From: an uncultured Pseudomonadota bacterium
GTDB taxonomy: Bacteria > Pseudomonadota > Gammaproteobacteria > Burkholderiales > SG8-39
DNA: 64,000 nucleotides
Assembly: GCA_963834845.1 (NCBI GenBank)
Contig: CAWICY010000004.1
Span: 2,649,530-2,713,529, forward strand
Direction of reading: 5' to 3'
The notes below the pieces were generated by a model. The model searched no databases and had not been told where the DNA came from. It worked only from the letters and a program-made list of their open reading frames with translations. Below are positions 6,736 to 52,280 of this stretch, piece by piece (within the stretch, counting starts at the first letter, position 1; each line of letters begins with the position of its first letter). A program made the position numbers and the translations under genes.

Positions 6736-7281
6736 ATGCGGATAGCACTCCCGCTACTCGTTTCCCTTGCGCTCGCCGGCGCCCCTGCGGCGCGGGCGGC
6801 GGAGCCGGACAATGCGACGCTGCAGCAGGAAGTGAACGCGCTGAAAGCGGTGGTGCATGACCTGCAGCAGCGCATGAACGTGCTGGAAGGGCGATCGCCG
6901 GCGGCGGCGCAGACCGCGCCAGTGCCGCAGGCCGCGCCCGCGTCTCAGGCCGCGCCCGCAGTACCTCAGGCCGCGCCAATGCCACAGGCCGCGCCCGCAG
7001 CGCCTCAGCCGCAGGCCGCGCCGGTCGCGGCGGCTCCGCCCGCGGCGAGCGCCGGCTACGTGAGCCCGGAGGCGGCACTCAGGGCGAACTGGTCGAAGGT
7101 GAACGCCAAGATGGATCAGGATGATGTAACGCGGCTTCTCGGCGCGCCGTCGAAGAAGTTCATGCTCGACGGCAGGAACGTCTGGTATTACTACTATCCG
7201 GGAACCGGCGGCGGCTCGGTGTTCTTCACTGACGTCGGGCGCGTAACGAGCAGCCAGTCGCCTTTCGGCTGGAGCTGGTAG
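6736..7281 (+). CDS. Secreted protein: coiled-coil, Pro/Ala/Gln repeat, C-terminal SmpA/OmlA (BamE-like) domain
   Basis: Signal MRIALPLLVSLALAGAPAARA|AEP. Heptad-like LQQEVNALKAVVHDLQQRMNVLE. PQAAPA repeats. C-terminus is DDVTRLLGAPSKKF...VWYYYYPG....VFF. Confidence 0.6.
   Translation: MRIALPLLVSLALAGAPAARAAEPDNATLQQEVNALKAVVHDLQQRMNVLEGRSPAAAQTAPVPQAAPASQAAPAVPQAAPMPQAAPAAPQPQAAPVAAAPPAASAGYVSPEAALRANWSKVNAKMDQDDVTRLLGAPSKKFMLDGRNVWYYYYPGTGGGSVFFTDVGRVTSSQSPFGWSW
6919..7026 (+). repeat. Imperfect in-frame tandem repeat (five copies of CAGGCCGCGCC with 18-27 nt period) encoding (V/A)PQAAPA
   Basis: CAGGCCGCGCC read at 6928, 6946, 6967, 6985 and 7012. It is a coding low-complexity repeat inside CDS 6736-7281. 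Confidence 0.8.
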
Positions 7282-7290
7282 CGGCGGCGC

Positions 7291-8220
7291 TCAGGTGCGC
7301 GCGCCGAGCAGCGGGTTGAGCCCGCTGCGCGTGACGCGCCCGTTGAGTTCGCGCCCGAGCGCGCGCTCACACAATTCGGCGGTCGCGAGCAGGCCGTCGA
7401 GGTCGATGCCGGTGGCCACGCCCATCGACTCGAGCAGGTTCACCAGGTCCTCGGTGCACACGTTGCCGGTGTAGCCGGCGCCGTACTTCACTTTCGCCGG
7501 GTGCCCGCCGACCCCGCCGAACGACGCATCGAAGTGGCGCACGCCGGCTTCGAGCGCGGCGACTGCGTTGACGAGGCCGGTGCCGCGCGTGTCGTGGAAG
7601 TGGGCGATCGGGGTCAATCCCGCGATGTGCGCCAGCCGCCCGCACATGTCCTTCACCGAGCGCGGCGTGGCCATCCCCGTGGTGTCGCCGAGCGCAACGT
7701 GATCGACGCCGAGCGCGGCGAAGCGCGCTGCGTCCTCGGCGACGACGCCGGCATCGACCTGGCCCTCGAACGGGCAGCCGAAGGCCACCGACACGGTACC
7801 GACCAGGCGGAAGTGCCCGCGCGCCGCGCGCGCCATCCGCTCGACGTTGGCCCACTGCTCGGCGCGCGTGCGGTTCAGGTTCTTCCGTGTGTGCGATTCG
7901 GTCGCCGAGACCAGCAGGCTGATCTCGTTCGCGCCGTGGCCGGCCTCGAGGTCGGCGAGCGCGCGCGCGACCGCGCGCGGGTTGGCGCAGGTCGCCTTGT
8001 ACCAGGTCCCCGGGCGGCGCGAGAGCGAGGCGAGCAGCTCGCTCGCGTCGGCGAACTGCGGCACGACCTCGGGATTGGAGTAGGAGGTCGCCTCGACGCG
8101 CGCGAAGCCGAGCGCGGCGAAGCGCTCGACGAGCGCGCGCTTGACGGCGGTCGGCACGAACTGCGGCTCGTGCTGCAGACCGTCGCGCGCGAAGCATTCG
8201 CAGATGACGACTGCTGCCAT
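7291..8220 (-). CDS. Hydroxymethylglutaryl-CoA lyase family (HMGL-like) protein
   Basis: 309 aa. N-terminus ICECFARDGLQHE, ...EATSYSNPEVVPQ..., ...HFHDTRGTGLVNAVAALEAGV..FDASFGGVGG.P: canonical HMGL-like TIM-barrel motifs. Confidence 0.9.
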   Translation of the reverse strand: MAAVVICECFARDGLQHEPQFVPTAVKRALVERFAALGFARVEATSYSNPEVVPQFADASELLASLSRRPGTWYKATCANPRAVARALADLEAGHGANEISLLVSATESHTRKNLNRTRAEQWANVERMARAARGHFRLVGTVSVAFGCPFEGQVDAGVVAEDAARFAALGVDHVALGDTTGMATPRSVKDMCGRLAHIAGLTPIAHFHDTRGTGLVNAVAALEAGVRHFDASFGGVGGHPAKVKYGAGYTGNVCTEDLVNLLESMGVATGIDLDGLLATAELCERALGRELNGRVTRSGLNPLLGART

Positions 8221-34787: not shown

Positions 34788-35098
34788 TCCACCTCGATCT
34801 CCATCTCCAGCAGCGCATAGCTGAGGCTCTTGCCGTGCGCGTCGAGCGCAAGCGAGGTGGTGACCCCGCCGCCGAGTGCGCCCTCGCACACGAACTGCAG
34901 CGCGCACAGGTTGGGCACTTCGTGGCGCACGACCTCGCCGCTGACGACCTGCGCAAGGTGCGCCTTGACGCGCGCCGCGGTGACCGCCTCGCGCAGCAGT
35001 GGGTAGTCCGCGTCGCGCAGCGCGATCAGCGACAGGATCGAGGTGTTGCCCTTGTCGCCGGCGCGGCAGTGCGCGAGCTCATACAAGCGTTTTTTCAC
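34784..35098 (-). CDS. Small protein resembling the DUF4387 / AtuA C-terminal module
   Basis: 104 aa (MKKRLYELAHCRAGDKGNTSILSLIAL...). Immediately downstream of, and overlapping by 20 nt, the DUF1446 gene, which is the usual partner arrangement. Confidence 0.55.
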   Translation of the reverse strand: MKKRLYELAHCRAGDKGNTSILSLIALRDADYPLLREAVTAARVKAHLAQVVSGEVVRHEVPNLCALQFVCEGALGGGVTTSLALDAHGKSLSYALLEMEIEVD

Positions 35099-36413
35099 CG
35101 CGCGTTTCCCTGATGGTGAGCTGCGGGCGCACCCGCTCGCGCTCGACGAGCGTCGAGACTACGCCGACCTGCTCGCGCACGTATTTGCGCGCGCCGCCGC
35201 CGCCGCCGGGACCGTTGGTCCACAGCGCCTCGACCTCCTCGCCAACCAGCTCGGCCTTCTCGCGCAGCGTCGCGCGAGCGGCGACGCGCAGCCGCACCTC
35301 GTAGGGCTCGCCCGCGACGCGCGAGGCCTTGCCGTGCAGCGAGTCGCAGCCGATGTAGTCGATGCGCAGCTCGCGGAACTCGCCCGCCAGACGCGCGCGC
35401 ACGGTCTCGCCGGCGAGCCGCGCGCGCGCCAGCGCGTTCGGCCCCGCGTAGCCCATCTCGCCTTCGCCGACGTAGCCCGCGTGGTAGCCGATGCTCGCCT
35501 TGAGCGTCGCGGGGCGCGCGCGGCCGCTCGCGCCGGAGACCGCGACCCGGTCGGCGCCCGCCTGCGCAATGCGCACCGTGGTGAAGTCGGCCACCACGTC
35601 GGGCGTCAGGTAGGCGCGCGGATCGGTGACCTCGTAGAGCAGCTGCTCCCTGACCGTCATCAGGTCGATGCGCCCGCCGGTGTCCTCGGGCTTGCCGAGC
35701 ACGAAGCGGCCGTCGGCGCCGATCTCCGCCCAGGGAAAGCCGAGCCGGGCGAAATCGGGCACGTCCTTCACGCCCGGGTCGGCGAAATAGCCGCCGGTGA
35801 CCTGCCCGGCGCACTCCAGCAGGTGGCCCATTGCCGTGCCGGCGGCCATGCGCCCGACGTCGGCCAGGTCCCAGCCGAGCTCGTGCGCCGCGGGCGCGAG
35901 GAACAGCGACGGATCGGCAACCCGTCCGGTGAGGATCACGTCGGCGCCGCTCGCCAGCGCCGGAAGCAGCGCGTCGGCACCGAGGTAAGCGTTGGCGGAA
36001 ACGAGCCACGGGTAGTCGCCGACCCTGCCGCCGGTCTCGAGGATGCGGTCCGCGGGGCGCAGCGCCTTCAGCACGTCGTCGCCGGTGACCGCCGCCACCT
36101 TGAGCGCGAGCCCGCGGCGCCGCGCGATGCCGAGCACCGCGTCGGCGGCGGCGACCGGATTGGCCGCGCCCATGTTGCTGATGACGCGAACGCCGCGGCG
36201 CTTGATCACCGGCAGCAGCAGCTCCATGCGCCGCGCGAGCAGCGGATCGTAGCCCTCGGCCGGGTCCTTGAGCCTGCGCAGCTGCGCCAGCGCGATGGTG
36301 CGCTCTGCGAGGCACTCGAGGCCGAGGTAGCGGATGTCGCCGCGCTCGGCGAGCACCACCGCCGGCTCGAGCCGGTCGCCCGCGAAGCCTGCGCCGGAGC
36401 CGATGCGAATCAT
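35079..36413 (-). CDS. AtuA-like acyclic-terpene-utilisation family protein (DUF1446)
   Basis: MIRIGSGAGFAGDRLEPAVVLAERGDIRYLGLECLAERTIALAQ...; ...ANAYLGA..L..AL..GADVILTGRVADPSL...HLLECAGQVTGGYFADP. The start overlaps the upstream ligase stop (ATGA-type). Confidence 0.75.
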   Translation of the reverse strand: MIRIGSGAGFAGDRLEPAVVLAERGDIRYLGLECLAERTIALAQLRRLKDPAEGYDPLLARRMELLLPVIKRRGVRVISNMGAANPVAAADAVLGIARRRGLALKVAAVTGDDVLKALRPADRILETGGRVGDYPWLVSANAYLGADALLPALASGADVILTGRVADPSLFLAPAAHELGWDLADVGRMAAGTAMGHLLECAGQVTGGYFADPGVKDVPDFARLGFPWAEIGADGRFVLGKPEDTGGRIDLMTVREQLLYEVTDPRAYLTPDVVADFTTVRIAQAGADRVAVSGASGRARPATLKASIGYHAGYVGEGEMGYAGPNALARARLAGETVRARLAGEFRELRIDYIGCDSLHGKASRVAGEPYEVRLRVAARATLREKAELVGEEVEALWTNGPGGGGGARKYVREQVGVVSTLVERERVRPQLTIRETRGEKTLV

Positions 36414-38106: not shown

Positions 38107-38451
38107 ATGATCGCGGTAATCTTCGAATTCACGCCCGCCCCGGGCCGCAAGCAGGAGTACCTCGACCTCGCCGCGGCGCTCAAGCCCGAGCTCGAGCGCG
38201 CCGACGGCTTCGTCTCGATCGAGCGCTTCGAGAGCATCACCGCGCCCGGGCACTTCGTGTCGATCTCGTACTGGCGCGACGAGCAGGCGGTGCGGCAATG
38301 GCGCAACCTCGAGCAGCACCGCGAGGCGCAGGCGAAGGGACGGAGCGGCATCTTCGCCGGTTATCGGCTGCGCGTGGCCTCGGTACTGCGCGACTACGGC
38401 CGCGGCGAGCGCGCCCAGGCGCCCGAGGACAGCGTCGCCGCGCACGGCTAG
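38107..38451 (+). CDS. Antibiotic-biosynthesis-monooxygenase (ABM) domain protein
   Basis: MIAVIFEFTPAPGRKQEYLDLAAAL.P.LE...GF.SIERFES.....HFVSISYWRDE.AV..WRN...H..AQ. Confidence 0.75.
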   Translation: MIAVIFEFTPAPGRKQEYLDLAAALKPELERADGFVSIERFESITAPGHFVSISYWRDEQAVRQWRNLEQHREAQAKGRSGIFAGYRLRVASVLRDYGRGERAQAPEDSVAAHG

Positions 38452-38804
38452 GCCGTGCGCGAGGCGAGCCAGGCGAGGGCTTCGTCCAGATTGGTGAACG
38501 CGCGCAGCCGCGCGTCCGGGCTTTCGGCGACCAGCTGGGCGAAGCGTGGGCTCGCTGTGCGTTCGTTTGCGGCGGCAAGCATTGCCGTCTTACAACGCTC
38601 GGCAAGCACCTCGCAAAGGCGATACAGATCGAGTACGTCGAGCGTCTCGTCGGCCTCGCGCAGGTCTACCAGCAGCACGCACGGCGCGGCGATGGTCGCG
38701 GCGAGGCGCGCGACCATCGCCTTGCTGGCGTCGAAGTCGAGCCGGTCTTGCGCCGTCGTCATGACGAACTCGTGGGGGCGAACGAGCTTGACGTCGACCG
38801 GCAC
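38448..38804 (-). CDS. Hypothetical protein (STAS-like feel); start uncertain
   Basis: The ORF ends ...RLRAFTNLDEALAWLASRTA. Possible starts are GTG 38804 (10 nt after the amidase stop) or ATG 38762. No RBS and no family recognised with confidence. Confidence 0.4.
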   Translation of the reverse strand: MPVDVKLVRPHEFVMTTAQDRLDFDASKAMVARLAATIAAPCVLLVDLREADETLDVLDLYRLCEVLAERCKTAMLAAANERTASPRFAQLVAESPDARLRAFTNLDEALAWLASRTA

Positions 38805-38814
38805 GGCCGCCCGA

Positions 38815-40248
38815 TCACACCATCTTGTCGGCTTCCGGCTCGCGGGCGGCGAGCGCCGCGAGGTCCGGCATCGGGATCGGCTGCTCCGACTCGAAGGCGC
38901 GCGCGGCGCGCAGCACCAGCGCATCGGCGTAGCGCGGCCCGACGATGTGCAGGCCCACCGGCAGGCCCGCGGCCGTCAGCCCGCAGGGAATCGAGGCCGC
39001 GGGCTGCTGCGTCAGGTTGAACGGGTAGGAGAAGGGCGTCCAGTCGGTCCAGCGCTTTTCCTTCATGACGTCGGCCACCTCCTTGCCCGCGTCGAAGGCG
39101 GCAAGCGGCAGGCTGGGCGTGAGCAGCAAGTCGTACTTCTCGTGGAACTGGTTCATGTGCACGCCGAGCGCGCCGCGCCGCTGCACCGCGTCGAGCAGCT
39201 CGAGCATGCCGATCTTCGCGCCCTGCTCGGCGACTTCGACCAGGCCGGGATCGACGAGCGCCTTCTGCTGCGGCGAGAAATTCTTCAGCAGGTAGGCGGC
39301 GCCCGTGAACCAGTGCGCGCGGAACACCGGCTCGGCATTTACGAAGCCCGGATCCACCGGCTCGACCAGCGCGCCAAGATCGACGAAGCGCATCGCCGCC
39401 TGCTCGACCAGCGCGGCCACTTCAGGGTCGACTTCGGCGTAGCCGAGGTTGGCCGAGTAGGCGATGCGCAGGCCGCGCACGCCCTCGTCCAGGCCGACGC
39501 GGTAATCGCGCGGCTCGTAGGGCAGGGCGAACCAGTCGCGCGTGTCGGGCCGCGACAGCACGTTTAGCAGCAGCGCGGCGTCGTGCACGCTGCGGGTCAT
39601 CGGCCCGACGTGCGCCACCGTGCCGAACGGCGACAGCGGCCAGGCGGGCACGCGACCGAACGACGGCTTGAGGCCGAACAGGCCGGTGAAGGCGCAGGGA
39701 ATGCGGATCGAGCCGCCGCCGTCGGTGCCGAGGGTCAGCGGCCCCATGCCCGCGGCGACCGCCGCCGCGGCGCCGCCCGAGGAGCCGCCGGGCGTCTTGG
39801 CGGGGTTCCACGGATTGCGCGTGATGCCGGTGAGCGAATTGTCCGTGACGCCCTTCCAGCCGAACTCCGGAGTGGTGGTCTTGCCGAGCAGCACCGCGCC
39901 CGCTTCGCGCAGCCGCGCCACGGCGGGCGCGTCGTCGTTCCACGGGCCCTTCGGATCGACGGTGCGCGAGCCGCGCAGCGTTGGCCAGCCCTTGGTGAGC
40001 AGCAGGTCCTTGATCGATGCGGGAACGCCGTCGAGCATGCCTTTCGGTTCGCCCTTCATCCAGCGCGCCTCCGATTCCTTGGCGACCGCGAGCGCGTCGG
40101 GCGCGAGGAAGCAGAAGCAGTTCAGCAGCGGGTTGAGGTCGTCGATCTGCTTGAGCACCGCGCGCGTCACCTCGACGGGCGAAATGCGCTTGCTGCGGTA
40201 CAGGTGGAGCAGCTCGACGGCGGACAGGGTGAGCAGGTCGGAGGACAT
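38815..40248 (-). CDS. Amidase (amidase-signature family)
   Basis: 477 aa. GVPASIKDL, ...GGSSGGAAAAVAAGMGPLTLGTDGGGSIRIP (AS signature). Confidence 0.92.
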   Translation of the reverse strand: MSSDLLTLSAVELLHLYRSKRISPVEVTRAVLKQIDDLNPLLNCFCFLAPDALAVAKESEARWMKGEPKGMLDGVPASIKDLLLTKGWPTLRGSRTVDPKGPWNDDAPAVARLREAGAVLLGKTTTPEFGWKGVTDNSLTGITRNPWNPAKTPGGSSGGAAAAVAAGMGPLTLGTDGGGSIRIPCAFTGLFGLKPSFGRVPAWPLSPFGTVAHVGPMTRSVHDAALLLNVLSRPDTRDWFALPYEPRDYRVGLDEGVRGLRIAYSANLGYAEVDPEVAALVEQAAMRFVDLGALVEPVDPGFVNAEPVFRAHWFTGAAYLLKNFSPQQKALVDPGLVEVAEQGAKIGMLELLDAVQRRGALGVHMNQFHEKYDLLLTPSLPLAAFDAGKEVADVMKEKRWTDWTPFSYPFNLTQQPAASIPCGLTAAGLPVGLHIVGPRYADALVLRAARAFESEQPIPMPDLAALAAREPEADKMV

Positions 40249-40260
40249 GGACTCGCGATC

Positions 40261-41154
40261 TCAGGTTCCGGAATACCGAAATCGGCTGGCCAGCGCCTCG
40301 GCGGTGCCGAACAGCCATGCTCCGCCGAGCGCCGGCGGCATGCGTGCAGAATACAGGGTCCCGCGCGGCTGCGCGACTGCGCCGGCACGCGCGCAGCGCC
40401 CGAGAAGCTCCCCGGGGTCGCGGCAGGCGAGCGCGTAGCCGGCGAGCGCGGGCGCCGCCGGGGCGCCGCCGAGCAGCGCGACGAGATCCTCCCTGCGGCC
40501 GACCAGCAGATCGCCGCGCGCGGTCGGCAGCCTCACGAACGCTCCGGCCGGGCGCGGCGCGAGCCCCGCGAAGCGCGCGTAGCGCGCCGCCACCGCCACC
40601 GGGTCGTCGGCGACGACGAACGCCGCGGCGAGCGCGCTCACGCCGTTGTCGTGCCGCAGCCAGCGCGGCTGCCACAGGCATTCGGGCGTCTTCTGCTCGA
40701 CGAACTGCACGCGTCCCTCGGGCATCGTTTCCGGCGGCACGCGCACCACGCCGAAGCGCGCGCGGCGCGTTGCGCCGTCGGGCATCTCGACATCGCGCGC
40801 GAGATCGACGCCGGGCAGCGGGGCGAAGCCGTGGCGCGCGAGGCGCTCGTGCTCGGCCGCGGCGTTAGGAGTGCCCAGGGCGAGGATGTGCACGCCCGCG
40901 TAGCGCGCCATCGCCGCGCGCGTGCGGCGCGCGTGCGGCGTGTCGGCGACCGGCGCGAGCAGCTCGATGTAGCCCGCGTCGAGCATGACGCAGCGGTTGG
41001 CGGTGCCGGTGGGGCCCTCGGCCGTCGCCTGCGCCGAGTACGGCGTCACGACGAAGCCGAGCGTCTGCAGGGCGGCGGCCGCGGCGTCCAGGTCCGGCAC
41101 GAAGTGCGCGACGTGGTCCAGGACCAGGGATCCGGCGATGGCGGTTTGCGGCAC
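40261..41154 (-). CDS. Glyoxalase-like / VOC domain protein
   Basis: LVLDHVAHFVPDLDAAAAALQTLGFVVTP... and ...GYIELL... resemble the glyoxalase-like domain family. GTG 41154 is chosen as the start; the longer ORF to 41259 would overlap the divergent NHase gene. Confidence 0.6.
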   Translation of the reverse strand: MPQTAIAGSLVLDHVAHFVPDLDAAAAALQTLGFVVTPYSAQATAEGPTGTANRCVMLDAGYIELLAPVADTPHARRTRAAMARYAGVHILALGTPNAAAEHERLARHGFAPLPGVDLARDVEMPDGATRRARFGVVRVPPETMPEGRVQFVEQKTPECLWQPRWLRHDNGVSALAAAFVVADDPVAVAARYARFAGLAPRPAGAFVRLPTARGDLLVGRREDLVALLGGAPAAPALAGYALACRDPGELLGRCARAGAVAQPRGTLYSARMPPALGGAWLFGTAEALASRFRYSGT

Positions 41155-41193
41155 GGTGTTTTTTCCGGACGTTGCGGGTGCAATAATAGCCGC

Positions 41194-41511
41194 ATGATCG
41201 AGCGCGGACACCACGACATGGGCGGATTGCCGGGCGGGCCGGTGGAGCGGAGCGAGCACGATTATGCCGATTGGGAGCGGCGCGTCGACGCGCTGATGGT
41301 CCTGCTGTCCGGCGTCAAGGGCGTGCGGAAGCTGCTCACGGTGGACGAGCTGCGCAAGAACATCGAGGCACTTGGACCCGAGGCCTACGACCGGATGAGC
41401 TACTACGAGCGCTGGGTGACCTCGATCACGCAGACCATGCTCCAGCGCGGCGTCATCACCACGGAGGAGCTGGCGCGCAAGATGCGGGAGGTCGAGCGGC
41501 GTGGCGATTGA
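41194..41511 (+). CDS. Nitrile hydratase beta subunit, N-terminal half (separate ORF)
   Basis: MIERGHHDMGGLPGGPVERSEHDYADWERRVDAL....G......VDELR..IE.L.P..Y..MSYYERWV.SI...L..GVIT.EEL matches the N-terminal half of NHase beta (HDxGG start motif). Confidence 0.85.
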   Translation: MIERGHHDMGGLPGGPVERSEHDYADWERRVDALMVLLSGVKGVRKLLTVDELRKNIEALGPEAYDRMSYYERWVTSITQTMLQRGVITTEELARKMREVERRGD

Positions 41512-41791
41512 GGCCCGCTTCAGGCCGGGCGACCGCGTGCGGGTGATGCAGGCCTACCCGCTCGGCCACGTCCGCACGCCTTACTACATCCGCGGCCACA
41601 GCGGCGTGATCGAGCGCGTGTGCGGGTCGTTCCCCAACCCCGAGGAGCTGGCGCAGATGCGCAGCGGTCTGCCCGCGCTGCCGCTGTACCGCGTGCGCTT
41701 CCGGCAAACGGAGGTGTGGCCAGACTACCGCGGCGAGCCAGACGACGTGGTCGAGATCGAGATTTTCCAGCACTGGCTGGAGACTGGATGA
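41501..41791 (+). CDS. Nitrile hydratase beta subunit, C-terminal half (separate ORF)
   Basis: The GTG start overlaps the previous ORF by 11 nt in another frame. [10 protein letters not shown]....[27 protein letters not shown].....G....PLYRVRF....VW......[12 protein letters not shown] matches the NHase beta C-terminal SH3-like half. Confidence 0.85.
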
Positions 41792-42381
41792 GCGAGCTCG
41801 GCAAGTACCAGCCGCTGACCTATTTCCAGCTCATGGAGGTCAGCCTGCGCGAGCTGCTGGTCGAGAAGGGCGTAGTGACCGAGCAGGCGATCGAGGCGGC
41901 CGTCGAGGATATGCGCTCGCGCGGGCCGGAGCGCGGCGCGAGGGTGGTGGCGCGCGCCTGGAGCGACCCGGGATACAAGCGGCGTCTGCTCGAGGACGGC
42001 ACCGCGGCCTGCGAGGAGCTGGGCCTGGACGTTCCGGCGCTGCGCCTGGTGGTGATGGAAAACACGCCCGCGGTGCACAACCTGATCGTGTGCACGCTGT
42101 GCTCGTGCTATCCGCGGATGCTCCTAGGCCTGCCGCCCGACTGGTACAAGTCGCGCAACTACCGCAGCCGCGTGGTGCGCGAGCCGCGCGCCGTGCTCGC
42201 CGAGTTCGGCACCACGATCCCGGACCATGTCGCGATCCGCGTGCACGACTCGACCGCCGACATGCGCTATATGGTGCTGCCGATGCGCCCCGCGGGCACC
42301 GAGGGCTGGGACGAGGAGCGCCTCGCGGCGCTGGTCACGCGCGACTCGATGATCGGCGTGGCGCTGCCGAAGGCGCCTTGA
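41788..42381 (+). CDS. nthA: Nitrile hydratase alpha subunit, cobalt-type (VCTLCSCY)
   Basis: ATGA overlap with beta-C. Metal-binding claw [35 protein letters not shown]; Thr and Tyr at the positions typical of Co-type enzymes. Confidence 0.92.
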
Positions 42382-43106
42382 GAGACAAGGCCCCCAAGCC
42401 GCTCGGCGTGCTGCCGCTCGGCGACGCCGCGGCGTACGTCGAATTCTCCGAGACGCTCGACCTCGCGATCAACGATGCGGTGCAGCGCCTCGCGGCCGCA
42501 GTGCGCGAGCGCGCCGTGCCGTGGATGCAGGACGTGGTCCCCGCCCTCGGCGGCCTCGCGCTGCACTTCGACGTCGATCACCCCGCGCTGCCCGATGCGC
42601 CGTTACAGGCGGCCGCCGAGCTGGTCGACGAATGCCTGAAGGCGGGCTTGCCCGCATCCGAGAAGGTAGGCCGCACGGTGGACGTGCCGGTGTGCTACGA
42701 CACCGAGCTCGCTCTCGACCTGGAGGAGATCGCCGAGCGCGTGAAGCTCGCGCCCGAGGAAGTGGCGCGCCGCCACGCCGCGCGCGAGTACCGCGTGCTG
42801 ATGATGGGGTTTTCTCCCGGGCTGCCATACCTCGGCGGCCTCGACCCGAGCATCGCGGTGCCGCGCCGCGCCACGCCGCGCGCCACGGTGCCGGCGGGGT
42901 CGATCGCCATCGCCAACCTGCAGGCGGTGGTCTACCCCTACGCCATACCGGGCGGCTGGAACGTGATCGGGCGCACGCCGCTCACGGTGTTCGACGCGCG
43001 GCGCGCGGCGCCGAGCCTGTTCGCGCCGGGCGACCGCGTGCGCTTCAGGCCGGTGACGCGCACCGAATTCGAGCGGCTGCGCGAAGCGCGGCGCGGCGCG
43101 CCATGA
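42378..43106 (+). CDS. pxpB: 5-oxoprolinase subunit B family (PxpB / KipI / allophanate hydrolase subunit 1)
   Basis: The TTG start overlaps the nthA stop (TTGA). ...[11 protein letters not shown]...; [19 protein letters not shown]....[21 protein letters not shown]...PGGWN.IGRTP. Confidence 0.85.
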
Positions 43107-44113
43107 GCGTCAAGGTCCTGCGGCCGGGCCTGCTTACCACCGTGCAGGACCGCGGGCGCTACGGGCTGCAGCACCTGGGCATCGTTCCCTGCGGTGCGAT
43201 GGACGTCACGGCGCACACGCTTGCCAATGCGCTGGTCGGCAACGAGCGCGACGAGGCGACGCTCGAGATTACTGTGCTCGGCCCCGAGCTCGAGTTCGAG
43301 CGTACCGCGCTGGTCGCGCTGTGCGGCGCCGAGTTCGACGCGCGCGCGGACGGCCGCGCGCTGCCGCCCAACCGTCCGGTGCTGCTCGAGGCGGGCGCAC
43401 GCCTCACGGCGCGGCGCGCGCTGCGCGGCGCGCGCGCCTACCTGGCGGTCGCCGGGGGCCTGGCACTCGAGGAGGTACTCGGCAGCCGCAGCACCTACCT
43501 TCCGGCGCGCTTCGGCGGGCTCGACGGCCGCGCGCTGCGCGCAGGGGACGTCGTGCCGCTGGCGCGCGACGCTTCCAGGGTCGCGGCGGCGCGCTACGCG
43601 AAGCTCGCGCGCGGCGCCGTCGTGCGCGACGGGCTGCGCACGGTGCGCTGGTCGGCGCCGTCGCTTACGCTGCCCGACCGCGAACCGATCGTCGTGCACG
43701 CCATGGAGGGCCGTCATTTCGCCAGGTTCCAGGCCACCTCGCAGCGCGTGCTGTTCGACGCCGTGTGGCGCGTCTCGCCGGATTCCAACCGCATGGGCTA
43801 CCGGCTCGCGGGGCCGACGCTCACGCTGATCGAGGCCGGTGAGATACTATCGGAGCCAACCTGCCTCGGCACGGTGCAGGTGCCCCCGAACGGCGTGCCG
43901 ATCGCGCTGCTGGCCGACCACCAGACGACCGGCGGCTATCCGAAGGTCGCCGAGATCGCCGTGGCGGACGTGCCGCGGCTGGCGCAGCTCGCGCCGGGCG
44001 GAACGTTGCATTTCGCGCGCTCGACGCTCGAGGACGCGCTGGGTTTGCGGCGTGCCGCGCGCCATCGCCTGCAGGCGGCGTTGCGCGCGGTGGCCTGGGA
44101 GTACGGGAAATGA
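43103..44113 (+). CDS. pxpC: 5-oxoprolinase subunit C family (PxpC / KipA / allophanate hydrolase subunit 2)
   Basis: [34 protein letters not shown]..., ...SNRMGYRL.GP.L......ILSEPTCLGTVQVPPNG.PI.LLADHQTTGGYPK. Confidence 0.88.
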   Translation: MSVKVLRPGLLTTVQDRGRYGLQHLGIVPCGAMDVTAHTLANALVGNERDEATLEITVLGPELEFERTALVALCGAEFDARADGRALPPNRPVLLEAGARLTARRALRGARAYLAVAGGLALEEVLGSRSTYLPARFGGLDGRALRAGDVVPLARDASRVAAARYAKLARGAVVRDGLRTVRWSAPSLTLPDREPIVVHAMEGRHFARFQATSQRVLFDAVWRVSPDSNRMGYRLAGPTLTLIEAGEILSEPTCLGTVQVPPNGVPIALLADHQTTGGYPKVAEIAVADVPRLAQLAPGGTLHFARSTLEDALGLRRAARHRLQAALRAVAWEYGK

Positions 44114-44865
44114 AACGCATCGATCTCAACTGCGACATGGGCGAAAGCTACGGCGCTTGGAAGATGGGCGCCGACGCCGACATCATGCCGCTCATCACTT
44201 CGGCCAACATCGCCTGCGGCTTTCACGCGGGCGACCCGGCGACCATCAGGAAGACTGTGCAGCTGGCCGTCGAGCACGGCGTCGCGGTCGGCGCGCACCC
44301 TTCGCTGCCCGACCTGCAGGGATTCGGCCGACGGGTCATGAAGATCACGCCGCAGGACATGTACGATCTGGTGCTGTACCAGGCCGGCGCGCTGCAGGCC
44401 TTCGCGCGCGCCGCGGGCGGCAGACTGCACCACGTCAAGTGCCACGGCGCGCTGTACAACATGTCGACCGACGACGAGGCGCTGTCCGATGCGATGGCGC
44501 GCGCCGTGCAGGACCTTGGCGGCGAGGTCATCCTGTACGCGCTGTCGAACAGCCGCATGATGGAGGCGGCTAAGGCGCGCGGCGTCCGGGTCGCCGGCGA
44601 AGCCTTCGCCGACCGCGGCTACTCGGACGATGGCACGCTCGCGCCGCGCGGCAAGCCCGGCGGCATGATCGAGCAAGAGGACAAGGCGGTGGCGCAGGCG
44701 CTCGCGATGATCGAGCAGGGCTACGTCACCAGCCTGTCGGGCAAGCGCGTGCCGGTGGCACCGGACACGCTGTGCCTGCACGGCGACCAGCCCGGAGCGG
44801 TCGCCTTCGCCAATGCATTGCGCAAGGCATTTGCCGATCGCGGCATCGCGCTCGGAGCACCCTGA
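44110..44865 (+). CDS. pxpA: 5-oxoprolinase subunit A (LamB/YcsF family)
   Basis: MKRIDLNCDMGESYGAWKMG.D..IMPLITSANIACGFHAGDP..I...V.LA..HGVAVGAHPS.PDL.GFGRR. Confidence 0.92.
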   Translation: MKRIDLNCDMGESYGAWKMGADADIMPLITSANIACGFHAGDPATIRKTVQLAVEHGVAVGAHPSLPDLQGFGRRVMKITPQDMYDLVLYQAGALQAFARAAGGRLHHVKCHGALYNMSTDDEALSDAMARAVQDLGGEVILYALSNSRMMEAAKARGVRVAGEAFADRGYSDDGTLAPRGKPGGMIEQEDKAVAQALAMIEQGYVTSLSGKRVPVAPDTLCLHGDQPGAVAFANALRKAFADRGIALGAP

Positions 44866-44882
44866 GAAAGGAACCGGAATCG

Positions 44883-46007
44883 ATGAGCAGCAAGCTATTC
44901 ACTACCATCCAGCTCGGCGGCGTCACGCTGCCCAACCGCATCGTGGTGTCGCCGATGTGCCAGTACTCCGCCGACGACGGCTCGATGACCGACTGGCACA
45001 TGATGCACCTCGGCAGCCTCGCGGCCTCGGGCGCGGGCCTGCTGATGATCGAGGCCACGGGCGTGACGCGTGAGGGCCGCATCTCGCACGGCTGCACCGG
45101 GCTTTACAGCGACAACAACGAGGCGGCGATGAAGCACGTGGTCGACGCCTGCCGGCGCGTCACCAGGAGCCCGATCGGCGTGCAGGTTGGCCACGCCGGC
45201 CGCAAGGGCTCGGCGCAGGTGCCGTGGCTGGGAGGCAAGGCGCTGTCGGCCGCCGAGTCGCCCTGGCAGACGGTCGCGCCTTCCGCGCTCGCGTTCGGCG
45301 AGGGCTGGCACACGCCGCGCGAGCTCTCCGCCGCCGACATCGCCGGCCTGGCGCAGGCTTTCGCCGCGGCCGCGCAGCGCGCGCAGCGCATCGGCCTGGA
45401 CGTGCTCGAGATGCACTCGGCGCACGGCTACCTGCTGCACGAGTTCCTGTCGCCGCTTTCGAACACCCGCAGCGATCGGTACGGCGGCAGCCTCGAGAAC
45501 CGCATGCGCGCGCCGCTCGAGATGGCGCAGGCGCTGCGCGCGGCCTGGCCGAAGGAGCGCTGCCTCGGCGCGCGCATCACGGCGAGCGACTGGACCGAGG
45601 GGGGTTTCGAAGCGGCCGACGCGGTGACCTACGCCAGGGAGCTGGCGCGCATCGGCTTCGACTACGTGTGCGTATCGAGCGGCGGGGCGGTGCCGCAGCA
45701 GCGCATCAAGGTGGTGCCCGGCTATCAGGTGGCGTTCGCCGAGAAGGTGAAGAAGGGCGCGCCCATCGCGGTGCGCGCGGTCGGCATGATCGCCGACCCA
45801 GAGCAGGCCGAGGAGATCGTCGCGAGCGGCAAGGCCGACATGGTGGCGCTGGCGCGCGGCTTCCTGGACGACCCTCGCTGGGTATGGCACGCCGCGGAGA
45901 AGTTCGGCGTCAAGATCGACTACCCCCCGCAATACGCGAGGAGCCATCCGGACCTGTGGCCGGGCGCGCGCCTGGCGCGCCCGCTGCCCGCCGCCGCAAC
46001 TGCATGA
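44883..46007 (+). CDS. NADH:flavin oxidoreductase (Old Yellow Enzyme family)
   Basis: LFTTIQLGGVTLPNRIVVSPMCQYS, ...HAGRK..., LEMHSAHGYLLHEFLSPLSN.R.D.YGGSLENR.R. Confidence 0.92.
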   Translation: MSSKLFTTIQLGGVTLPNRIVVSPMCQYSADDGSMTDWHMMHLGSLAASGAGLLMIEATGVTREGRISHGCTGLYSDNNEAAMKHVVDACRRVTRSPIGVQVGHAGRKGSAQVPWLGGKALSAAESPWQTVAPSALAFGEGWHTPRELSAADIAGLAQAFAAAAQRAQRIGLDVLEMHSAHGYLLHEFLSPLSNTRSDRYGGSLENRMRAPLEMAQALRAAWPKERCLGARITASDWTEGGFEAADAVTYARELARIGFDYVCVSSGGAVPQQRIKVVPGYQVAFAEKVKKGAPIAVRAVGMIADPEQAEEIVASGKADMVALARGFLDDPRWVWHAAEKFGVKIDYPPQYARSHPDLWPGARLARPLPAAATA

Positions 46008-46909
46008 AGCCGGCTGTCGCGCTCGTCGGCCTCGGCCGCATGGGCGCGCCGATGGCACGCCGCCTGCTCGCGGCGCGCCACCGGCTGCGCGTCTACGACG
46101 CGAGCCCGCGCGCACGCGCGGCCTTCGCCGCGGAGAAAGGCGCCACCGTGTGCGCGTCGCCGGCCGACGCCGCACGCGGCGCCCGTGTGCTGATCACCAT
46201 GCTGCCCGACGGTGCCGCGGTGCGCGCGGCGCTGCTCGGCAGGGACGGCGCGGCGCCGGCGCTGGCGCGCGGCGCGGTGGTGGTCGACATGAGCTCGTCG
46301 GACCCGGACACCACGCGGCGCCTGGGCCGCGCGCTCGCGGCGCGCGGCGTGGCGTTTCTCGACGCGCCGGTCTCGGGGCGCGTGGTCGGCGCGCGCGAGG
46401 GCACGCTCACCATCATGGTCGGAGGCGCGCCCGCGGCGCTCGCGCGCGTGCGGCCGGTGCTCAGGCACCTCGGCACGCGCATCTTTCACTGCGGCCCCGC
46501 GGGCGCCGGGCACGCGGTCAAGTCTCTCAGCAATGCGATCGCCGCGGCCGGCACGGTCGCCGCGTTCGAGGCGCTCATCGTCGGGCGCGCGCTCGGGCTC
46601 GACGCGAGGCTGATCAACGAGGTGTGGAATGCCTCGGCAGGACGCAACACCACCACCGAGCAGAAGATTCCGACACAGGTGCTGACGCGCGCCTTCGCAT
46701 CGGGCTTCGCGCTGTCGCTGATGGCGAAGGATATCGGCATCGCGGCGCGGCTCGCGCGCAGGACCGGCGTCGACGCGCCGCTGCTGCGCAGGAGCCTCGC
46801 GCTGTGGCGTGCGGCCGAGCGGCGTCTCGGGCGCGGCGCCGATCACACCGAGATGTATCTCTACCTCGCGAACAATTCAGCGAAGCGCAAGCGTCGGCGC
46901 GTAAGCTGA
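46004..46909 (+). CDS. NAD(P)-dependent 3-hydroxyisobutyrate/6-phosphogluconate dehydrogenase-like oxidoreductase
   Basis: VALVGLGRMGAPMARRL (Rossmann GxGxxG), ...FLDAPVSG......G.LTIMVGG..., ...G.G...K..NN. ATGA overlap with the OYE gene. Confidence 0.85.
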   Translation: MKPAVALVGLGRMGAPMARRLLAARHRLRVYDASPRARAAFAAEKGATVCASPADAARGARVLITMLPDGAAVRAALLGRDGAAPALARGAVVVDMSSSDPDTTRRLGRALAARGVAFLDAPVSGRVVGAREGTLTIMVGGAPAALARVRPVLRHLGTRIFHCGPAGAGHAVKSLSNAIAAAGTVAAFEALIVGRALGLDARLINEVWNASAGRNTTTEQKIPTQVLTRAFASGFALSLMAKDIGIAARLARRTGVDAPLLRRSLALWRAAERRLGRGADHTEMYLYLANNSAKRKRRRVS

Positions 46910-46929
46910 GCGACAGCTTTCTTTTTTTT
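46904..46929 (+). terminator. Weak stem (AGCTG-agcga-CAGCT) followed by TTTCTTTTTTTTG; probable intrinsic terminator of the NHase-pxp operon
   Basis: Read directly. The T-tract is the longest in the window. The stem is only 5 bp and includes the stop codon. Confidence 0.5.
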
Positions 46930-48351: not shown

Positions 48352-49392
48352 ATGAAGCCGAAGATCGTCCTGCTCGTCGCGGTGGTCGCGCTGCTCGCGG
48401 CGGGCGGCGCATGGTGGTGGCGCCAGCAGCGCGCGCAGCCGCCGAGCGACGCGCTGGTGCTCCACGGCAACGTCGATATCCGCCAGGTCGAGCTCGCCTT
48501 CAACGCCTCGGGGCGCATCGAGCAGATGCTGGCCCACGAGGGCGATCGCGTGACGCCGGGACAGCTGCTCGCGGTGCTCGACATGCGCCGGCTCGAGCGC
48601 GCCGAGCAGCTGGCCGAGGCGCAGGTCGCCGCGCAGCGCCAGGTGGTGGCGCGCTTCCGGGCGGGATCGCGGCCCGAGGAGATCAGCAAGGCGAAGGCAG
48701 ACGTCGAGGCCGCGCGCGTCGACGCGAGGAACGCCGCGCACACCTATGAGCGCCTCAAGGCGCTTGCCGCGCAGCGCTTCATCGCCGAGCAGCAGGCCGA
48801 TGATGCGCGCGCCGCGGCCGAGGCCGCCAGCGCCCGGCTCAAGTCGGTGGAGGAGGCGCTGCGCCTGGTGGTGCTCGGCCCGCGCCAGGAGGACACGGCG
48901 GCCGCCGAGGCGACGCTGGCGGCCAACGAGGCGGCGCTCGCCATCGCGCGGCGCGACCTCGCCGAGGCGTCGCTCTACGCGCCGGCCGCGGGCGTGATCG
49001 AGAACCGCGTGCTCGAGCCTGGCGACATGGCCTCGCCGCAGAAGACGGTATTCACGCTGGCGCTCGGCGAGCCGCTGTGGGTGCGCGCCTACGTGCCCGG
49101 CCCCGATCTCGGCAAGATCCGCGTCGGCAGCCGCGCGGCGGTGCGCACCGACAGCTATCCCGGCAAGCGCTATCGCGCATGGGTCGGCTTCATATCGCCG
49201 ACCGCGGAGTTCACGCCGAAATCGGTCGAGACGCAGGAGGTGCGCACCCAGCTCGTCTACCAGGTGAGGGTGTTCGTGTGCGCGCCGCAGGGCGAACTGA
49301 GGCTCGGCATGCCCGCGACCGTCGACATCCCGCTCGGCGAGCCGGCGCCTGCCGCCGGCCGCGGCCCGGATCCCTGCAAAAACGGCGCATGA
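48352..49392 (+). CDS. HlyD-family membrane-fusion protein (YbhG-like)
   Basis: N-terminal anchor IVLLVAVVALLAAGGAWWW, long coiled-coil region, ...YAPAAGVI..R..EPG......Q.VF.L......WVRAYV.E..L, ...FTPK.V.T.E.R..LVY.V. Confidence 0.88.
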   Translation: MKPKIVLLVAVVALLAAGGAWWWRQQRAQPPSDALVLHGNVDIRQVELAFNASGRIEQMLAHEGDRVTPGQLLAVLDMRRLERAEQLAEAQVAAQRQVVARFRAGSRPEEISKAKADVEAARVDARNAAHTYERLKALAAQRFIAEQQADDARAAAEAASARLKSVEEALRLVVLGPRQEDTAAAEATLAANEAALAIARRDLAEASLYAPAAGVIENRVLEPGDMASPQKTVFTLALGEPLWVRAYVPGPDLGKIRVGSRAAVRTDSYPGKRYRAWVGFISPTAEFTPKSVETQEVRTQLVYQVRVFVCAPQGELRLGMPATVDIPLGEPAPAAGRGPDPCKNGA

Positions 49393-51118
49393 GCGCGCCG
49401 GAGGTCGTCCTCGAGCTCGAGGGAGTGGCCAAGCGCTTTCGCGCCGGCAAGCGCGAAGTGGCTGCGCTGCGCGGCGTGAGCCTGCGCATGCGCGCGGGGC
49501 TGGTGATGGGGCTGGTCGGGCCCGACGGCGCCGGCAAGACGACGCTCATGCGCCTGGTCGCGGGGCTGCTGGCGCCCGATGCCGGGCGCATCACGGTGCT
49601 CGGACTCGACGCCACCAGCCGGTCGCTCGACGTGCAGGCGGCGCTCGGCTACATGCCGCAGCGCTTCGGACTGTACGAGGACCTGAGCGTGCAGGAAAAC
49701 CTCGACCTGTACGCGGACCTGCAGGGCGTGCCGAGGGCGGCGCGCGCCGCGCGCTACGCCGAGCTGATGCAGATGACGGGCCTCGGCCCGTTCAGCGGCC
49801 GCCTCGCCGGGCGCCTCTCTGGCGGCATGAAGCAGAAGCTCGGCCTCGCCTGCACGCTGGTGCGCGCGCCGCCGCTGCTGCTGCTGGACGAGCCCACAGT
49901 CGGCGTCGACCCGGTGTCGCGCCGCGAGCTGTGGGCGATCGTCTACCGGCTGGTGAAGGGCGAGGGCACGAGCGTGCTGCTGTCGCACGGCGTACCTGGA
50001 CGAGGCCGAGCGCTGCGACGAGGTGGTGCTGCTGCACGAGGGAGAGGTGCTGGTGCAGGGACCGCCCGCGGAGCTCGCCGAGCGCGTGCGCGGGCACAGC
50101 TTCACGCTGCGCGCGCGCGGCGCCGACCGACGGCGGTTGCAGGAAGCGCTCGCACGCCGGCCGGGGGTGATCGACGCGCTGATCCAAGGCGAGGAGGTGC
50201 GCTTCGTCACCGAGAGCGCGGCGCCGCCGGGCGACATTGCCGGGCTGCGCGCCGAGCCCGTAGCGCCGCGCTTCGAGGACGCTTTCGTGTCCTTGCTGCA
50301 CGAGCGGCGCGGGGCCCAGGGCCGCGCGGCGCCCGCGGCCGCCGCCGAAGACGCGGATCCGCCGGCGGACGAAGTGGTGATCGACGTGCGCGGCGCGCAG
50401 CGCAAGTTCGGCGATTTCTACGCCGTCCGCGACGTGAGCTTCGAGGTGCGCCGCGGCGAGATCTTCGGCCTGCTGGGCGCCAACGGCGCGGGCAAGTCGA
50501 CCACCTTCCGCATGCTGTGCGGGCTGCTGCCGGCGAGCGCGGGGCACGCTGCGCGTGGCCGGCGTCGACCTGCGCCGCGCGGCCGCGGCGGCGCGCGCGC
50601 GCATCGGCTACATGTCGCAGAAGTTCTCCCTGTACGGCAACCTGAGCGTGCGCCAGAACCTCGAGTTCTTCGCCGGCGCCTACGGACTCGACGGGCACGC
50701 GGCGTGCCGAGCGCGAAGCCTGGGCGCTCGACGAATTCGAGCTCGGACGAGGAGCGCCGACGCCGCGAGCGCCGAGCTGCCGCTCGGCTACAAGCAGCGC
50801 CTGGCGATGGCCTGCGCCCTGATGCACGAGCCGGAGATCCTGTTCCTCGACGAGCCCACCTCCGGGGTCGATCCGCTGGCGCGGCGCGAGTTCTGGCGGC
50901 GCATCAACGCGCTCGCGCGGCGCGGCGTGACGGTGATGGTGACCACGCATTTCATGGAGGAAGCCGAGTACTGCGACCGGCTGGCGATCATGGCTGCGGG
51001 CGAGATCCTCGCGACCGGCGCGCCCGACGAGATCAAGGCGCGCGCCCGGGCGCCGGGCGCGCCCGAGCCGACCATGGAAGACGCCTTCATCCAACTGATC
51101 CAGGGCGCGGCCGCATGA
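49389..51118 (+). pseudogene. Tandem-ATPase ABC protein (YbhF-like, two NBDs) carrying about 4 frameshifts
   Basis: NBD1 is in frame 0 (GLVGPDGAGKTT, LSGGMKQKL, LLLLDEPTVGVD) up to SVLLS. TAYLDEAERCDEVVLLHEG continues in frame 1 (extra c ~49986). NBD2 (GLLGANGAGKSTT) shifts again at GGGG 50541-50544, at GGG 50693-50695 and at ~50748. It ends LPLGYKQRLAMA...LFLDEPTSGVDP...*. Confidence 0.8.
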
Positions 51119-52280
51119 GCGCGCGCGGCGGCGCCGCCGCAGGGATCGCCGTGCGCGGCGGCGCGACGATGCGGCTGCGCGGGCTGGTGCGCAAGGAGTT
51201 CCTGCAGATCGTGCGCGATCCGAGCAGCATCGCGATCGCCTTCATCATGCCGGTCGTGCTGCTGCTGCTGTTCGGCTACGGCGTGTCGCTCGACGTCGAG
51301 CACGTGCCGGTGGCGGTGGTGGTCGAGCAGCCCGAGCGCCGACACCGCGGACTTCGTCGGCTCGCTGCGGGGCTCGCGCTATTTTGCGCCCCTCGAGGTG
51401 CCGGGCATGCAGGCGGCCGAGGAGGCGCTGCTGCGCAGGCCGGGTCGACGCGATCGTCCGCCTGCGCGCCGACTTCGCCGCGCGCGAGCGGCGGCCGCAG
51501 GGCGCGCCGGTGCAGCTGATCGTCAACGGCATCGACGCCAACACCGCGCGGCTGGTCGAGGGCTACATGGACGGCGTCACCACCGTGTGGCTGGCGCGGC
51601 GCGCCGCCGAGCGCGGCCGGCGCTTCGAGACGCCGGTGGCGCTCGAGCAGCGCGTGTGGTTCAACTCCGAGGTGCGCAGCCGCAACTTCCTGGTGCCCGG
51701 CCTGGTCGTGGTGATCATGACCCTGATCGGCGCGCTGCTCACCGCGATGGTGATGGCGCGCGAGTGGGAGCGCGGCACCATGGAGGCGCTGCATGGTCAC
51801 GCCGGTCGCGGTCGGCGAGATCCTGCTCGGCAAGCTGATTCCCTACTTCATTCTCGGCATGGGCGGAATGCTGCTGTCGGTGGCGATGGCCATCTGGCTG
51901 TTCGACGTGCCGCTCGCGCGGCTCGTTCTGGCTGCTGCTGCTCACCTCGGCGCTGTTCCTGCTGGTCGCGCTGGGCATGGGTCTGCTGATCTCGAGCGTC
52001 GCCCGGGTGCCAGTTCGTCGCCGGGCAGGTCGCCATCATCACCACCTTCCTGCCGGCGTTCCTGCTCTCCGGCTTCATCTTCGACATCGGCAGCATGCCT
52101 GCGGTGGTGCAGGTGATCACGCACCTGTTCGCGGCGCGCTATTTCGTCGCCATCGTCACCACCCTGTTCCTCGCCGGCGACGTCTGGTCGGTGATCGTGC
52201 CGAACACGCTGGCGCTGGCGCTCATGGCGGCGATATTTCTCGGCCTGACGCGGCTCAAGACCCGCAAGCGGCTGGAGTGA
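51115..52280 (+). pseudogene. ABC-2 type permease (YbhS-like) carrying about 5 frameshifts
   Basis: The protein can only be assembled from four frames: MSARGG...VAVVVEQ | SADTADFVGSLRGSRYFAPLEV | VDAIVRLRADF...REWERGTMEAL | MVTPVAVGEILLGK...FDVPL | SFWLLLLTSALFLLVALGMGLLISS | QFVAGQVAIITTFLPAFLLSGFIFDIGSMPAVVQVITHLFAARYF...*. Shifts fall near 51331-51333, 51437, 51792, 51913-51922 and 52004-52010. Confidence 0.75.

Follow-up and report, generated by a model that had tools for sequence, protein, structure and literature searches.

A predicted three-subunit cobalt-type nitrile hydratase with a split beta subunit heads an eight-gene string in an uncultured Burkholderiales bacterium

Introduction

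Has a gene been broken, or are two proteins made, when the two halves of an enzyme subunit are read from different, overlapping frames? This question is raised by a nitrile hydratase (NHase) locus of an uncultured Pseudomonadota bacterium (Burkholderiales; SG8-39), which lies in a 64,000-nt stretch of DNA (assembly GCA_963834845.1, contig CAWICY010000004.1, positions 2,649,530–2,713,529 of the forward strand) that is referred to here as the window and numbered from its first nucleotide. A first-pass annotation of the window had assigned two short open reading frames (ORFs) to the halves of the NHase beta subunit, had proposed that the enzyme is naturally composed of three subunits, and had suggested that close homologues be examined for a continuous beta subunit and that alpha be placed in a phylogeny. 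The split is genuine and not a sequencing error, and the locus very probably encodes a three-subunit cobalt-type NHase with beta encoded as two polypeptides. Three-subunit NHases with a split beta are already known in other bacteria; what appears to be new here is the gene neighbourhood.

Results

Two overlapping frames encode the halves of a beta subunit

The three NHase genes and the signal between the first two are as follows.

41194–41511, plus strand: beta-N (ORF1), N-terminal half of the NHase beta subunit (105 aa, 12.2 kDa)
41486–41491, plus strand: Shine–Dalgarno sequence GGGAGG, inside the beta-N coding sequence and 9 nt 5' of the beta-C GTG
41501–41791, plus strand: beta-C (ORF2), C-terminal, SH3-like half of the NHase beta subunit (96 aa, 11.2 kDa)
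41788–42381, plus strand: NHase alpha subunit (197 aa, 22.1 kDa), whose ATG overlaps the beta-C stop by 4 nt

beta-N (MIERGHHDMGG...YYERWV...RRGD) extends from the ATG at 41194 to a TGA at 41509–41511, and beta-C, in the +1 frame relative to beta-N, from the GTG at 41501 to a TGA at 41789–41791, the two sharing 11 nt (41501–41511). Each half passes its own Pfam domain model, beta-N that of NHase_beta_N (PF21006, 76.3 bits, E-value 2.5e-21) and beta-C that of NHase_beta_C (PF02211, 84.6 bits, E-value 6.8e-24). Alignment with known structures places beta-N on residues 3–93 of 3QXE_B, the cobalt-type beta chain of Pseudomonas putida, and beta-C on residues 128–217 of the closely related chain 3QYG_B. 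On TIGR03888, the curated model of the full-length single-chain NHase beta (226 positions, equivalog cut-off 152.2 bits), beta-N covers positions 2–99 (68.3 bits) and beta-C positions 135–224 (71.6 bits), while the roughly 35 positions of the linker (100–134) are matched in neither half, the two together amounting to 105 + 96 = 201 aa. All the coordinates of the first-pass annotation hold, as do its 11-nt overlap and its missing linker, and the domain and structure alignments agree in assigning the two ORFs to the halves of beta.

The split and its junction signals are conserved

Relatives were collected with an alpha scan of one genome per species, which gave 511; the best 80 of these and five metagenome contigs (loci with L numbers below) were analysed further, with beta-N, beta-C and alpha located by six-frame phmmer. 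The split could be scored in the 76 loci in which both halves were located near alpha. The halves lie in separate frames in every one of these 76, as they do in the window, and are fused in none, the frame of beta-C relative to beta-N being +1 in 41 cases, −1 in 36 and 0 never. The junction itself varies from locus to locus, with overlaps of 1 nt to more than 20 nt and all three stop codons in use. At L071, L082 and L084 the halves do not overlap at all but stand 0.5–1 kb apart, and another ORF may intervene.

Among the 11 closest loci the alignment shows a different pattern of constraint. Here the beta-C GTG, the beta-N TGA and the AGG core of the ribosome-binding site (41489–41491) are invariant in 11 out of 11, the G that precedes this core (41488) is present in at least 90%, and the distance from GTG to TGA differs by 0, 3 or 6 nt, which keeps both frames. 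A database search with beta-C returned 2783 relatives, and the best 120 were all stand-alone proteins of 93–104 aa. Frame-keeping insertions and deletions, variable overlaps and a conserved start, stop and ribosome-binding site thus indicate selection for two proteins rather than an error or a recoding event. The related loci that could be scored, the comparison with close homologues that the first-pass annotation had suggested, are all split and none has a continuous beta, which bears out its proposal that the enzyme naturally has three subunits.

The alpha subunit and the active-site residues of both beta halves

Alpha is matched by PF02979 with 280.8 bits, and its best matches in the PDB are the alpha chains of cobalt NHases. 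It passes the curated NHase alpha equivalog TIGR01323 (272.8 bits against a cut-off of 249.85) but fails TIGR03887, the model of the gamma subunit of thiocyanate hydrolase (234.3 bits against a cut-off of 291.45). The motif VCTLCSCY, which the first-pass annotation had correctly described as being of the cobalt type in a 197-aa alpha, occupies residues 101–108 (nt 42088–42111); it aligns with the same motif of the Pseudonocardia thermophila alpha and is invariant in 97 aligned sequences, classical NHases included. In this cobalt signature Thr and Tyr replace the Ser and Thr of the iron enzymes, the claw being C-(T/S)-L-C-S-C.

In the P. thermophila enzyme, betaArg52, betaTyr68 and betaArg157 form hydrogen bonds to the oxidised cysteines and take part in catalysis. 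R54 and Y70 of beta-N and R25 of beta-C align with the corresponding motifs of 3QXE_B and 3QYG_B. Again with classical NHases included, R54, Y70 and W74 of beta-N are invariant in 89 sequences (Tyr71 adjoins Tyr70) and H23, R25 and R31 of beta-C in 93.

A model for synthesis and assembly of the enzyme

The internal GGGAGG, together with the 4-nt overlaps at the later junctions, points to translational coupling of the subunits. We propose that beta-N would be translated first, that the GGGAGG within its coding sequence would recruit ribosomes to the beta-C GTG across the 11-nt overlap, and that beta-C and then alpha (through the ATGA overlap) would be made by translational coupling, giving near-equal amounts of the three subunits. 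The three proteins are predicted to assemble as an (alpha/beta-N/beta-C)2 hexamer, as in toyocamycin NHase and in the Streptomyces enzyme ScNHase (below), in which the CTLCSC claw of alpha would bind non-corrin Co(III) and Arg54 and Tyr70 of beta-N with Arg25 of beta-C would supply the second-shell residues that otherwise come from a single-chain beta. The reaction of such an enzyme would be the hydration of a nitrile, with the amide as product. By analogy with the AnhD subunit of ScNHase, beta-N probably doubles as a chaperone for cobalt and for subunit swapping. Four classical NHase accessory proteins, CbtA/B and HoxN gave no match in the 64-kb window at E ≤ 1, nor did the same queries in the flanks of L001–L089 at E ≤ 1e-5.

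Two departures from the arrangement of the window were seen among the relatives. In six loci (L018, L030, L032, L038, L044 and L066) a tandem pair of beta-N genes precedes beta-C and alpha, and in the L030 pair (7100–7432 and 7428–7724) the Arg motif of the active site and the YY motif are present in both copies. The second beta-N may serve as a dedicated chaperone, in line with the two functions that AnhD is reported to combine. In four others, from different metagenome-assembled genomes (MAGs), beta-N is fused in frame to alpha (L027:1085–1987, L029:7062–8585, L043:6213–8576 and L057:7254–8570), with pxpBCA genes still downstream in L027, L029 and L043. The linker of the L057 fusion is rich in His and Asp (HDHDGHDHTHDHDH), a composition that suggests a built-in metal-binding segment.

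Comparison with characterized and annotated nitrile hydratases

The nearest parallel in architecture is ScNHase of Streptomyces canus CGMCC 13662, which has been studied on neonicotinoids and consists of AnhD, AnhE and AnhA (10.4, 11.4 and 21.3 kDa) in the composition AnhD2E2A2; it has no activator, AnhD being both a part of beta and a swapping chaperone, and AnhD and AnhE are both needed for activity (PMC7329996). ScNHase and the window share the order N-half, C-half, alpha (starting in the window at 41194, 41501 and 41788), the cobalt type, the lack of an activator gene and similar subunit masses (about 10/11/21 kDa against 12.2/11.2/22.1 kDa for beta-N, beta-C and alpha), although ScNHase is an actinomycete enzyme and the likeness is judged from published architecture and masses. 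The same order occurs on a plasmid of Planktothrix agardhii and on one of Streptomyces sp. NBC_01176, where the locus matches the window beta-N, beta-C and alpha with 78, 84 and 259 bits; in the latter, aquaporin and HoxN genes follow, which the window lacks, having pxpBCA-like and old yellow enzyme (OYE) genes instead. The order beta-N, beta-C, alpha is thus not the peculiarity that the first-pass annotation had implied, since it is that of AnhD-AnhE-AnhA (PMC7329996).

The toyocamycin NHase ToyJKL of Streptomyces rimosus is a cobalt enzyme of composition (alpha beta gamma)2 (21.2, 10 and 11.4 kDa), belongs to a nucleoside-antibiotic biosynthetic cluster and converts toyocamycin to sangivamycin. 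Its two small subunits correspond to beta halves, as in the window; ToyJ is alpha, and if the letters follow gene order toyJKL is alpha-first, whereas alpha is third in the window. No deazapurine genes were found in the window. The beta-equivalent of thiocyanate hydrolase ScnABC (2DD4) also consists of two chains and its gamma is homologous to NHase alpha, but its chains are larger (126, 157 and 243 aa) and the window alpha fails the cut-off of its family. Both parallels, which the first-pass annotation had drawn, are valid on structure matches and published subunit make-up.

Other split enzymes differ in order. The NHase on the plasmid of flonicamid-degrading Microvirga flocculans has the order beta-alpha-beta, and Rhizobium and Microvirga plasmid NHases, of the cobalt type and with a split beta like that of the window, are arranged beta-C, alpha, beta-N; the Rhizobium locus continues with aquaporin and CbtA/B genes and the Microvirga locus with a HoxN cobalt transporter gene, neither of which is the arrangement of the window, and the inspected regions of these plasmid loci contain no annotated accessory protein. 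RefSeq plasmids carry many split NHases, the halves of which are labelled 'SH3-like domain-containing protein' or 'nitrile hydratase'.

Classical cobalt NHases (3QXE, 1IRE and 1V29) have the same claw and the same invariant beta Arg/Tyr/Arg as the window, but their beta, about 220 aa long, is one chain that includes a linker of some 35 residues, and classical loci in Pantoea, Acinetobacter, Halalkalicoccus and Pseudoroseomonas have, unlike the window, a single nthB and an adjacent accessory gene. In phmmer scores the window subunits are closer to split than to classical systems (alpha, 250–283 against 209–223 bits; beta-N, 77–102 against 40–46; beta-C, 49–109 against 28–46). The alpha phylogeny that had been suggested, made in rough form by neighbour joining, does group the split systems apart from four classical alphas, but with a bootstrap value of only 53 this grouping is indicative. 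The phmmer and tree comparisons left out the AnhDEA and ToyJKL sequences.

The gene neighbourhood

The NHase genes are followed on the plus strand by five further genes and preceded by genes that are mostly on the minus strand.

35079–36413, minus strand: AtuA-family gene, abutting the acyl-CoA ligase stop, as in L003
36410–38068, minus strand: acyl-CoA synthetase (AMP-binding; NF006181, 827 bits)
38107–38451, plus strand: small ORF with an ABM (antibiotic biosynthesis monooxygenase-like) domain, between the acyl-CoA ligase and the amidase
38448–38924, minus strand: ORF without a family match, also between the acyl-CoA ligase and the amidase
38815–40248, minus strand: amidase-signature amidase (PF01425, 350.6 bits; NF004815, 722.5 bits)
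40261–41154, minus strand: Glyoxalase_3 gene (VOC superfamily; PF13468, 107.2 bits), divergent from beta-N
42378–43106, plus strand: pxpB-like gene (CT_C_D domain), whose TTG start overlaps the alpha stop by 4 nt
43103–44113, plus strand: pxpC-like gene (CT_A_B domain), with 4-nt overlaps at both ends
44110–44865, plus strand: pxpA-like gene (LamB/YcsF family; PF03746, 342.3 bits)
44880–46007, plus strand: OYE-family NADH:flavin oxidoreductase (PF00724, 211.7 bits)
46004–46909, plus strand: 3-hydroxyisobutyrate-dehydrogenase-like (HIBADH-like) NAD(P) oxidoreductase (PF03446, 169.1 bits; PF14833, 112.8 bits)
46903–46919, plus strand: terminator-like hairpin with a T run at the end of the eight-gene string, a consensus match only, such matches being no more numerous in the region than expected by chance

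The co-directional string therefore comprises eight genes, in the order beta-N, beta-C, alpha, pxpB-, pxpC- and pxpA-like, OYE and dehydrogenase. After the beta-N/beta-C junction the genes meet in 4-nt overlaps of the ATGA or TTGA type, except for a 14-nt gap before the OYE gene; the ATG of the dehydrogenase, which is the last gene, again overlaps the OYE stop by 4 nt. The pxpB-like product matches PF02682 (216 bits) and passes TIGR00370 (167.3 bits against a cut-off of 145.55), the pxpC-like product matches PF02626 (294.9 bits) and passes only the family-level TIGR00724, and the pxpA-like product passes only subfamily models (NF003814, 351 bits against a cut-off of 226). It may be that the PxpBCA-like proteins are paralogues that act on a different lactam or amide.

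The likely start of the Glyoxalase_3 gene is the GTG at 41154, judged from the 297-aa homologue in L003 and from the sequence, although the maximal ORF reaches 41259. Only 39 nt (41155–41193) then separate it from the beta-N ATG, a spacing that is identical in L001, and both promoters must lie within the neighbouring coding sequences. A sigma-70-like match is present on the minus strand inside beta-N (41288–41261). Beyond the Glyoxalase_3 gene come, in order, the amidase, the small unmatched ORF, the ABM-domain ORF, the acyl-CoA ligase and AtuA. A protein of about 117 aa without a family match occupies the corresponding position in L003 and L088. The AtuA frame extends upstream as a spurious 890-aa ORF that overlaps the ligase gene and could misdirect annotation from ORFs.

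Recurrence of these genes was counted among the 80 genome loci, for most features in 20 pxp-linked loci. pxpB lies directly 3' of alpha in 27 of 73 related loci, all of them among the closest relatives, and the pxpB-like gene has the same position in L001, L003 and L086–L088. The OYE gene directly follows pxpA in 15 of the 20 pxp-linked loci, and does so too in L086 and L088, and a divergent Glyoxalase_3 gene is found within 4 kb in 18. A thiamine diphosphate (ThDP)-dependent enzyme is encoded between Glyoxalase_3 and beta-N in 13 of the 20, though not in the window and its closest relatives; this gene (L010, L015, L020–L022, L025, L029, L030 and others) lies immediately 5' of beta-N on the same strand and specifies an acetolactate-synthase-like protein of about 570 aa that matched no curated equivalog model. 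A mandelonitrile-type pathway was considered and found unsupported, the ThDP enzyme being generically acetolactate-synthase-like and an MR_MLE protein of L087 generically of the enolase superfamily.

The operon layout recurs in metagenome contigs and MAGs, many of them of Burkholderiales. Close relatives are all MAGs of uncultured Burkholderiales from soil or sediment, the best alpha identity among species-representative genomes being 88%. Synteny with L088 (contig_28023 of ERZ25039517, a 640-kb metagenome contig) extends over more than 20 kb (29000–52000 of the window) and takes in GSDH, an alpha/beta hydrolase, Fe-ADH, MFS_4, the acyl-CoA ligase, the amidase, Glyoxalase_3, NHase, pxpBCA, OYE and, later, an HlyD/ABC exporter. 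The amidase and the acyl-CoA synthetase are both syntenic in L003 and L088; they are candidates for the second step (amide to acid) and the third step of a pathway opened by the NHase. An NHase together with an amidase and an acyl-CoA synthetase is reminiscent of the aldoxime–nitrile pathway clusters of Pseudomonas and Rhodococcus.

Discussion

We propose that the NHase would be the first product of an overlap-coupled eight-gene operon that faces Glyoxalase_3, with the amidase and the acyl-CoA ligase behind it, and that the operon most likely opens a catabolic route for a natural nitrile. The coupling of a split NHase to a pxpBCA-like/OYE/dehydrogenase operon opposite Glyoxalase_3 in uncultured Burkholderiales appears to be undescribed; no paper linking NHase with PxpABC (5-oxoprolinase, LamB) was found in the searchable library. 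Although this context is unusual, it does not point to a particular substrate, and the non-standard substrate that the first-pass annotation had raised is no more than a possibility.

Several observations weigh against the reading as a three-subunit cobalt-type NHase in a catabolic operon. Neither beta half reaches the TIGR03888 cut-off of 152.2 bits, nor does the sum of the two (139.9 bits). The loci in which beta-N is fused to alpha (L027, L029, L043 and L057) have no beta-C within about 8 kb, so that beta-C may not be indispensable in the family, which weakens the assumption of classical alpha–beta behaviour. The pxpC-like product scores 268 bits against a PxpC equivalog cut-off of 500, and this makes the role of the downstream genes less certain. 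For the sequence nitrile to amide to acid to CoA ester, the amidase is present in only seven and the acyl-CoA ligase in only three of the 20 pxp-linked loci. Finally, activity, metal, stoichiometry and substrate are inferred for the window protein and its close relatives alike, as are the quaternary structure and chaperone role of the window enzyme.

The first of the other explanations is that the proteins have an NHase-like fold but another physiological reaction, either thiocyanate hydrolysis or, with the PxpBCA-like partner, a reaction on a non-nitrile or cyano-lactam substrate. Thiocyanate hydrolase also has a split beta, and chains A, B and C of 2DD4 all match; alpha scores 234 bits on the thiocyanate model and is tightly coupled by overlaps to pxpB/C/A, with pxpB next to alpha in 27 of 73 loci, a partnership for which, as noted above, the library offers no precedent. 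It is nevertheless the NHase cut-off that alpha passes and the thiocyanate cut-off that it fails, both beta halves score higher on NHase beta than on the thiocyanate hydrolase chains (50.4 against 37.1 and 41.4 against 27.7 bits), and the characterized three-subunit relatives all hydrate nitriles. Thiocyanate hydrolase identity was rejected on these curated cut-offs and PDB scores, and the wider explanation we consider unlikely.

Somewhat more improbable still is that ORF1 is an NHase activator or accessory protein and that the working enzyme consists of alpha and beta-C only. Self-subunit-swapping chaperones do resemble the beta N-terminus and AnhD has chaperone activity (PMC7329996), the locus has no separate activator gene, and the tandem beta-N genes of six related loci suggest that two roles are separable. 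ORF1 is, however, a strong match to the beta N-domain (76.3 bits; TIGR03888 positions 2–99) and keeps, invariant in 89 sequences, the residues that align with the classical beta active-site Arg and Tyr, whereas four classical accessory proteins match nothing in the window at E ≤ 1. In ScNHase, moreover, AnhD is beta and chaperone at once and activity needs AnhD as well as AnhE (PMC7329996).

A sequencing or assembly frameshift that cut an ordinary single-chain beta gene deserved attention, since the window does hold a gene that looks frameshifted, and caution over the split was therefore justified. This plus-strand ABC-transporter gene, for a double ATPase, is broken over three frames within 48804–51516 (48804–50642, 49957–51516 and 50438–51115) and has a single 574-aa gene as its L088 homologue; the break may reflect two true frameshifts, which would make the gene a pseudogene, or else errors in the sequencing of the window. 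For the beta gene the chance of such an error is negligible and the explanation was rejected, because the split, without a single fusion, is found in 76 of 76 scorable independent loci that come from different assemblies and assemblers, the junction start, stop and ribosome-binding-site core are invariant with indels that keep both frames, the best 120 relatives of beta-C stand alone, and a 1-nt error cannot delete 35 model positions. A programmed ribosomal frameshift in the 11-nt overlap, giving a fused full-length beta, was likewise rejected and has next to no chance of being correct: the overlap does end in a zero-frame stop (GAT TGA) that is superficially like +1 frameshift sites, but the shift would have to be +1 in 41 loci and −1 in 36, across overlaps of 1 to more than 20 nt and in three loci across 0.5–1 kb, no single recoding signal is conserved where a ribosome-binding site and the beta-C start are, and the Rhizobium and Microvirga plasmids, which place alpha between the halves, indicate that fusion is unnecessary.

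Given a three-subunit NHase, a more specific reading of the neighbourhood is possible but doubtful: in this Burkholderiales lineage the NHase would be the entry enzyme of an undescribed, closely coupled Glyoxalase_3/PxpBCA-like/OYE/dehydrogenase module that degrades a specific natural cyano compound, rather than a free-standing nitrile detoxifier, and the beta-N–alpha branch would show beta-C to be dispensable. The PxpBCA-like proteins would then be an ATP-dependent lactamase or amide-activating enzyme and the OYE an ene-reductase, and an unsaturated or lactam-bearing nitrile would be one example of a substrate. In another version, the amide made by the NHase would be what the PxpBCA-like proteins act on.

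That the coupling with pxpBCA-like and OYE genes is conserved suggests an undescribed nitrile catabolic route, although this is only a lead at present. The split beta genes should not be 'repaired' as frameshifts in annotation, and a widespread class of three-subunit NHases is concealed in RefSeq behind the name 'SH3-like domain-containing protein'. Activator-free cobalt NHases with a tandem beta-N, a beta-N–alpha fusion or a His-rich linker form a comparative series for cobalt insertion and subunit swapping.

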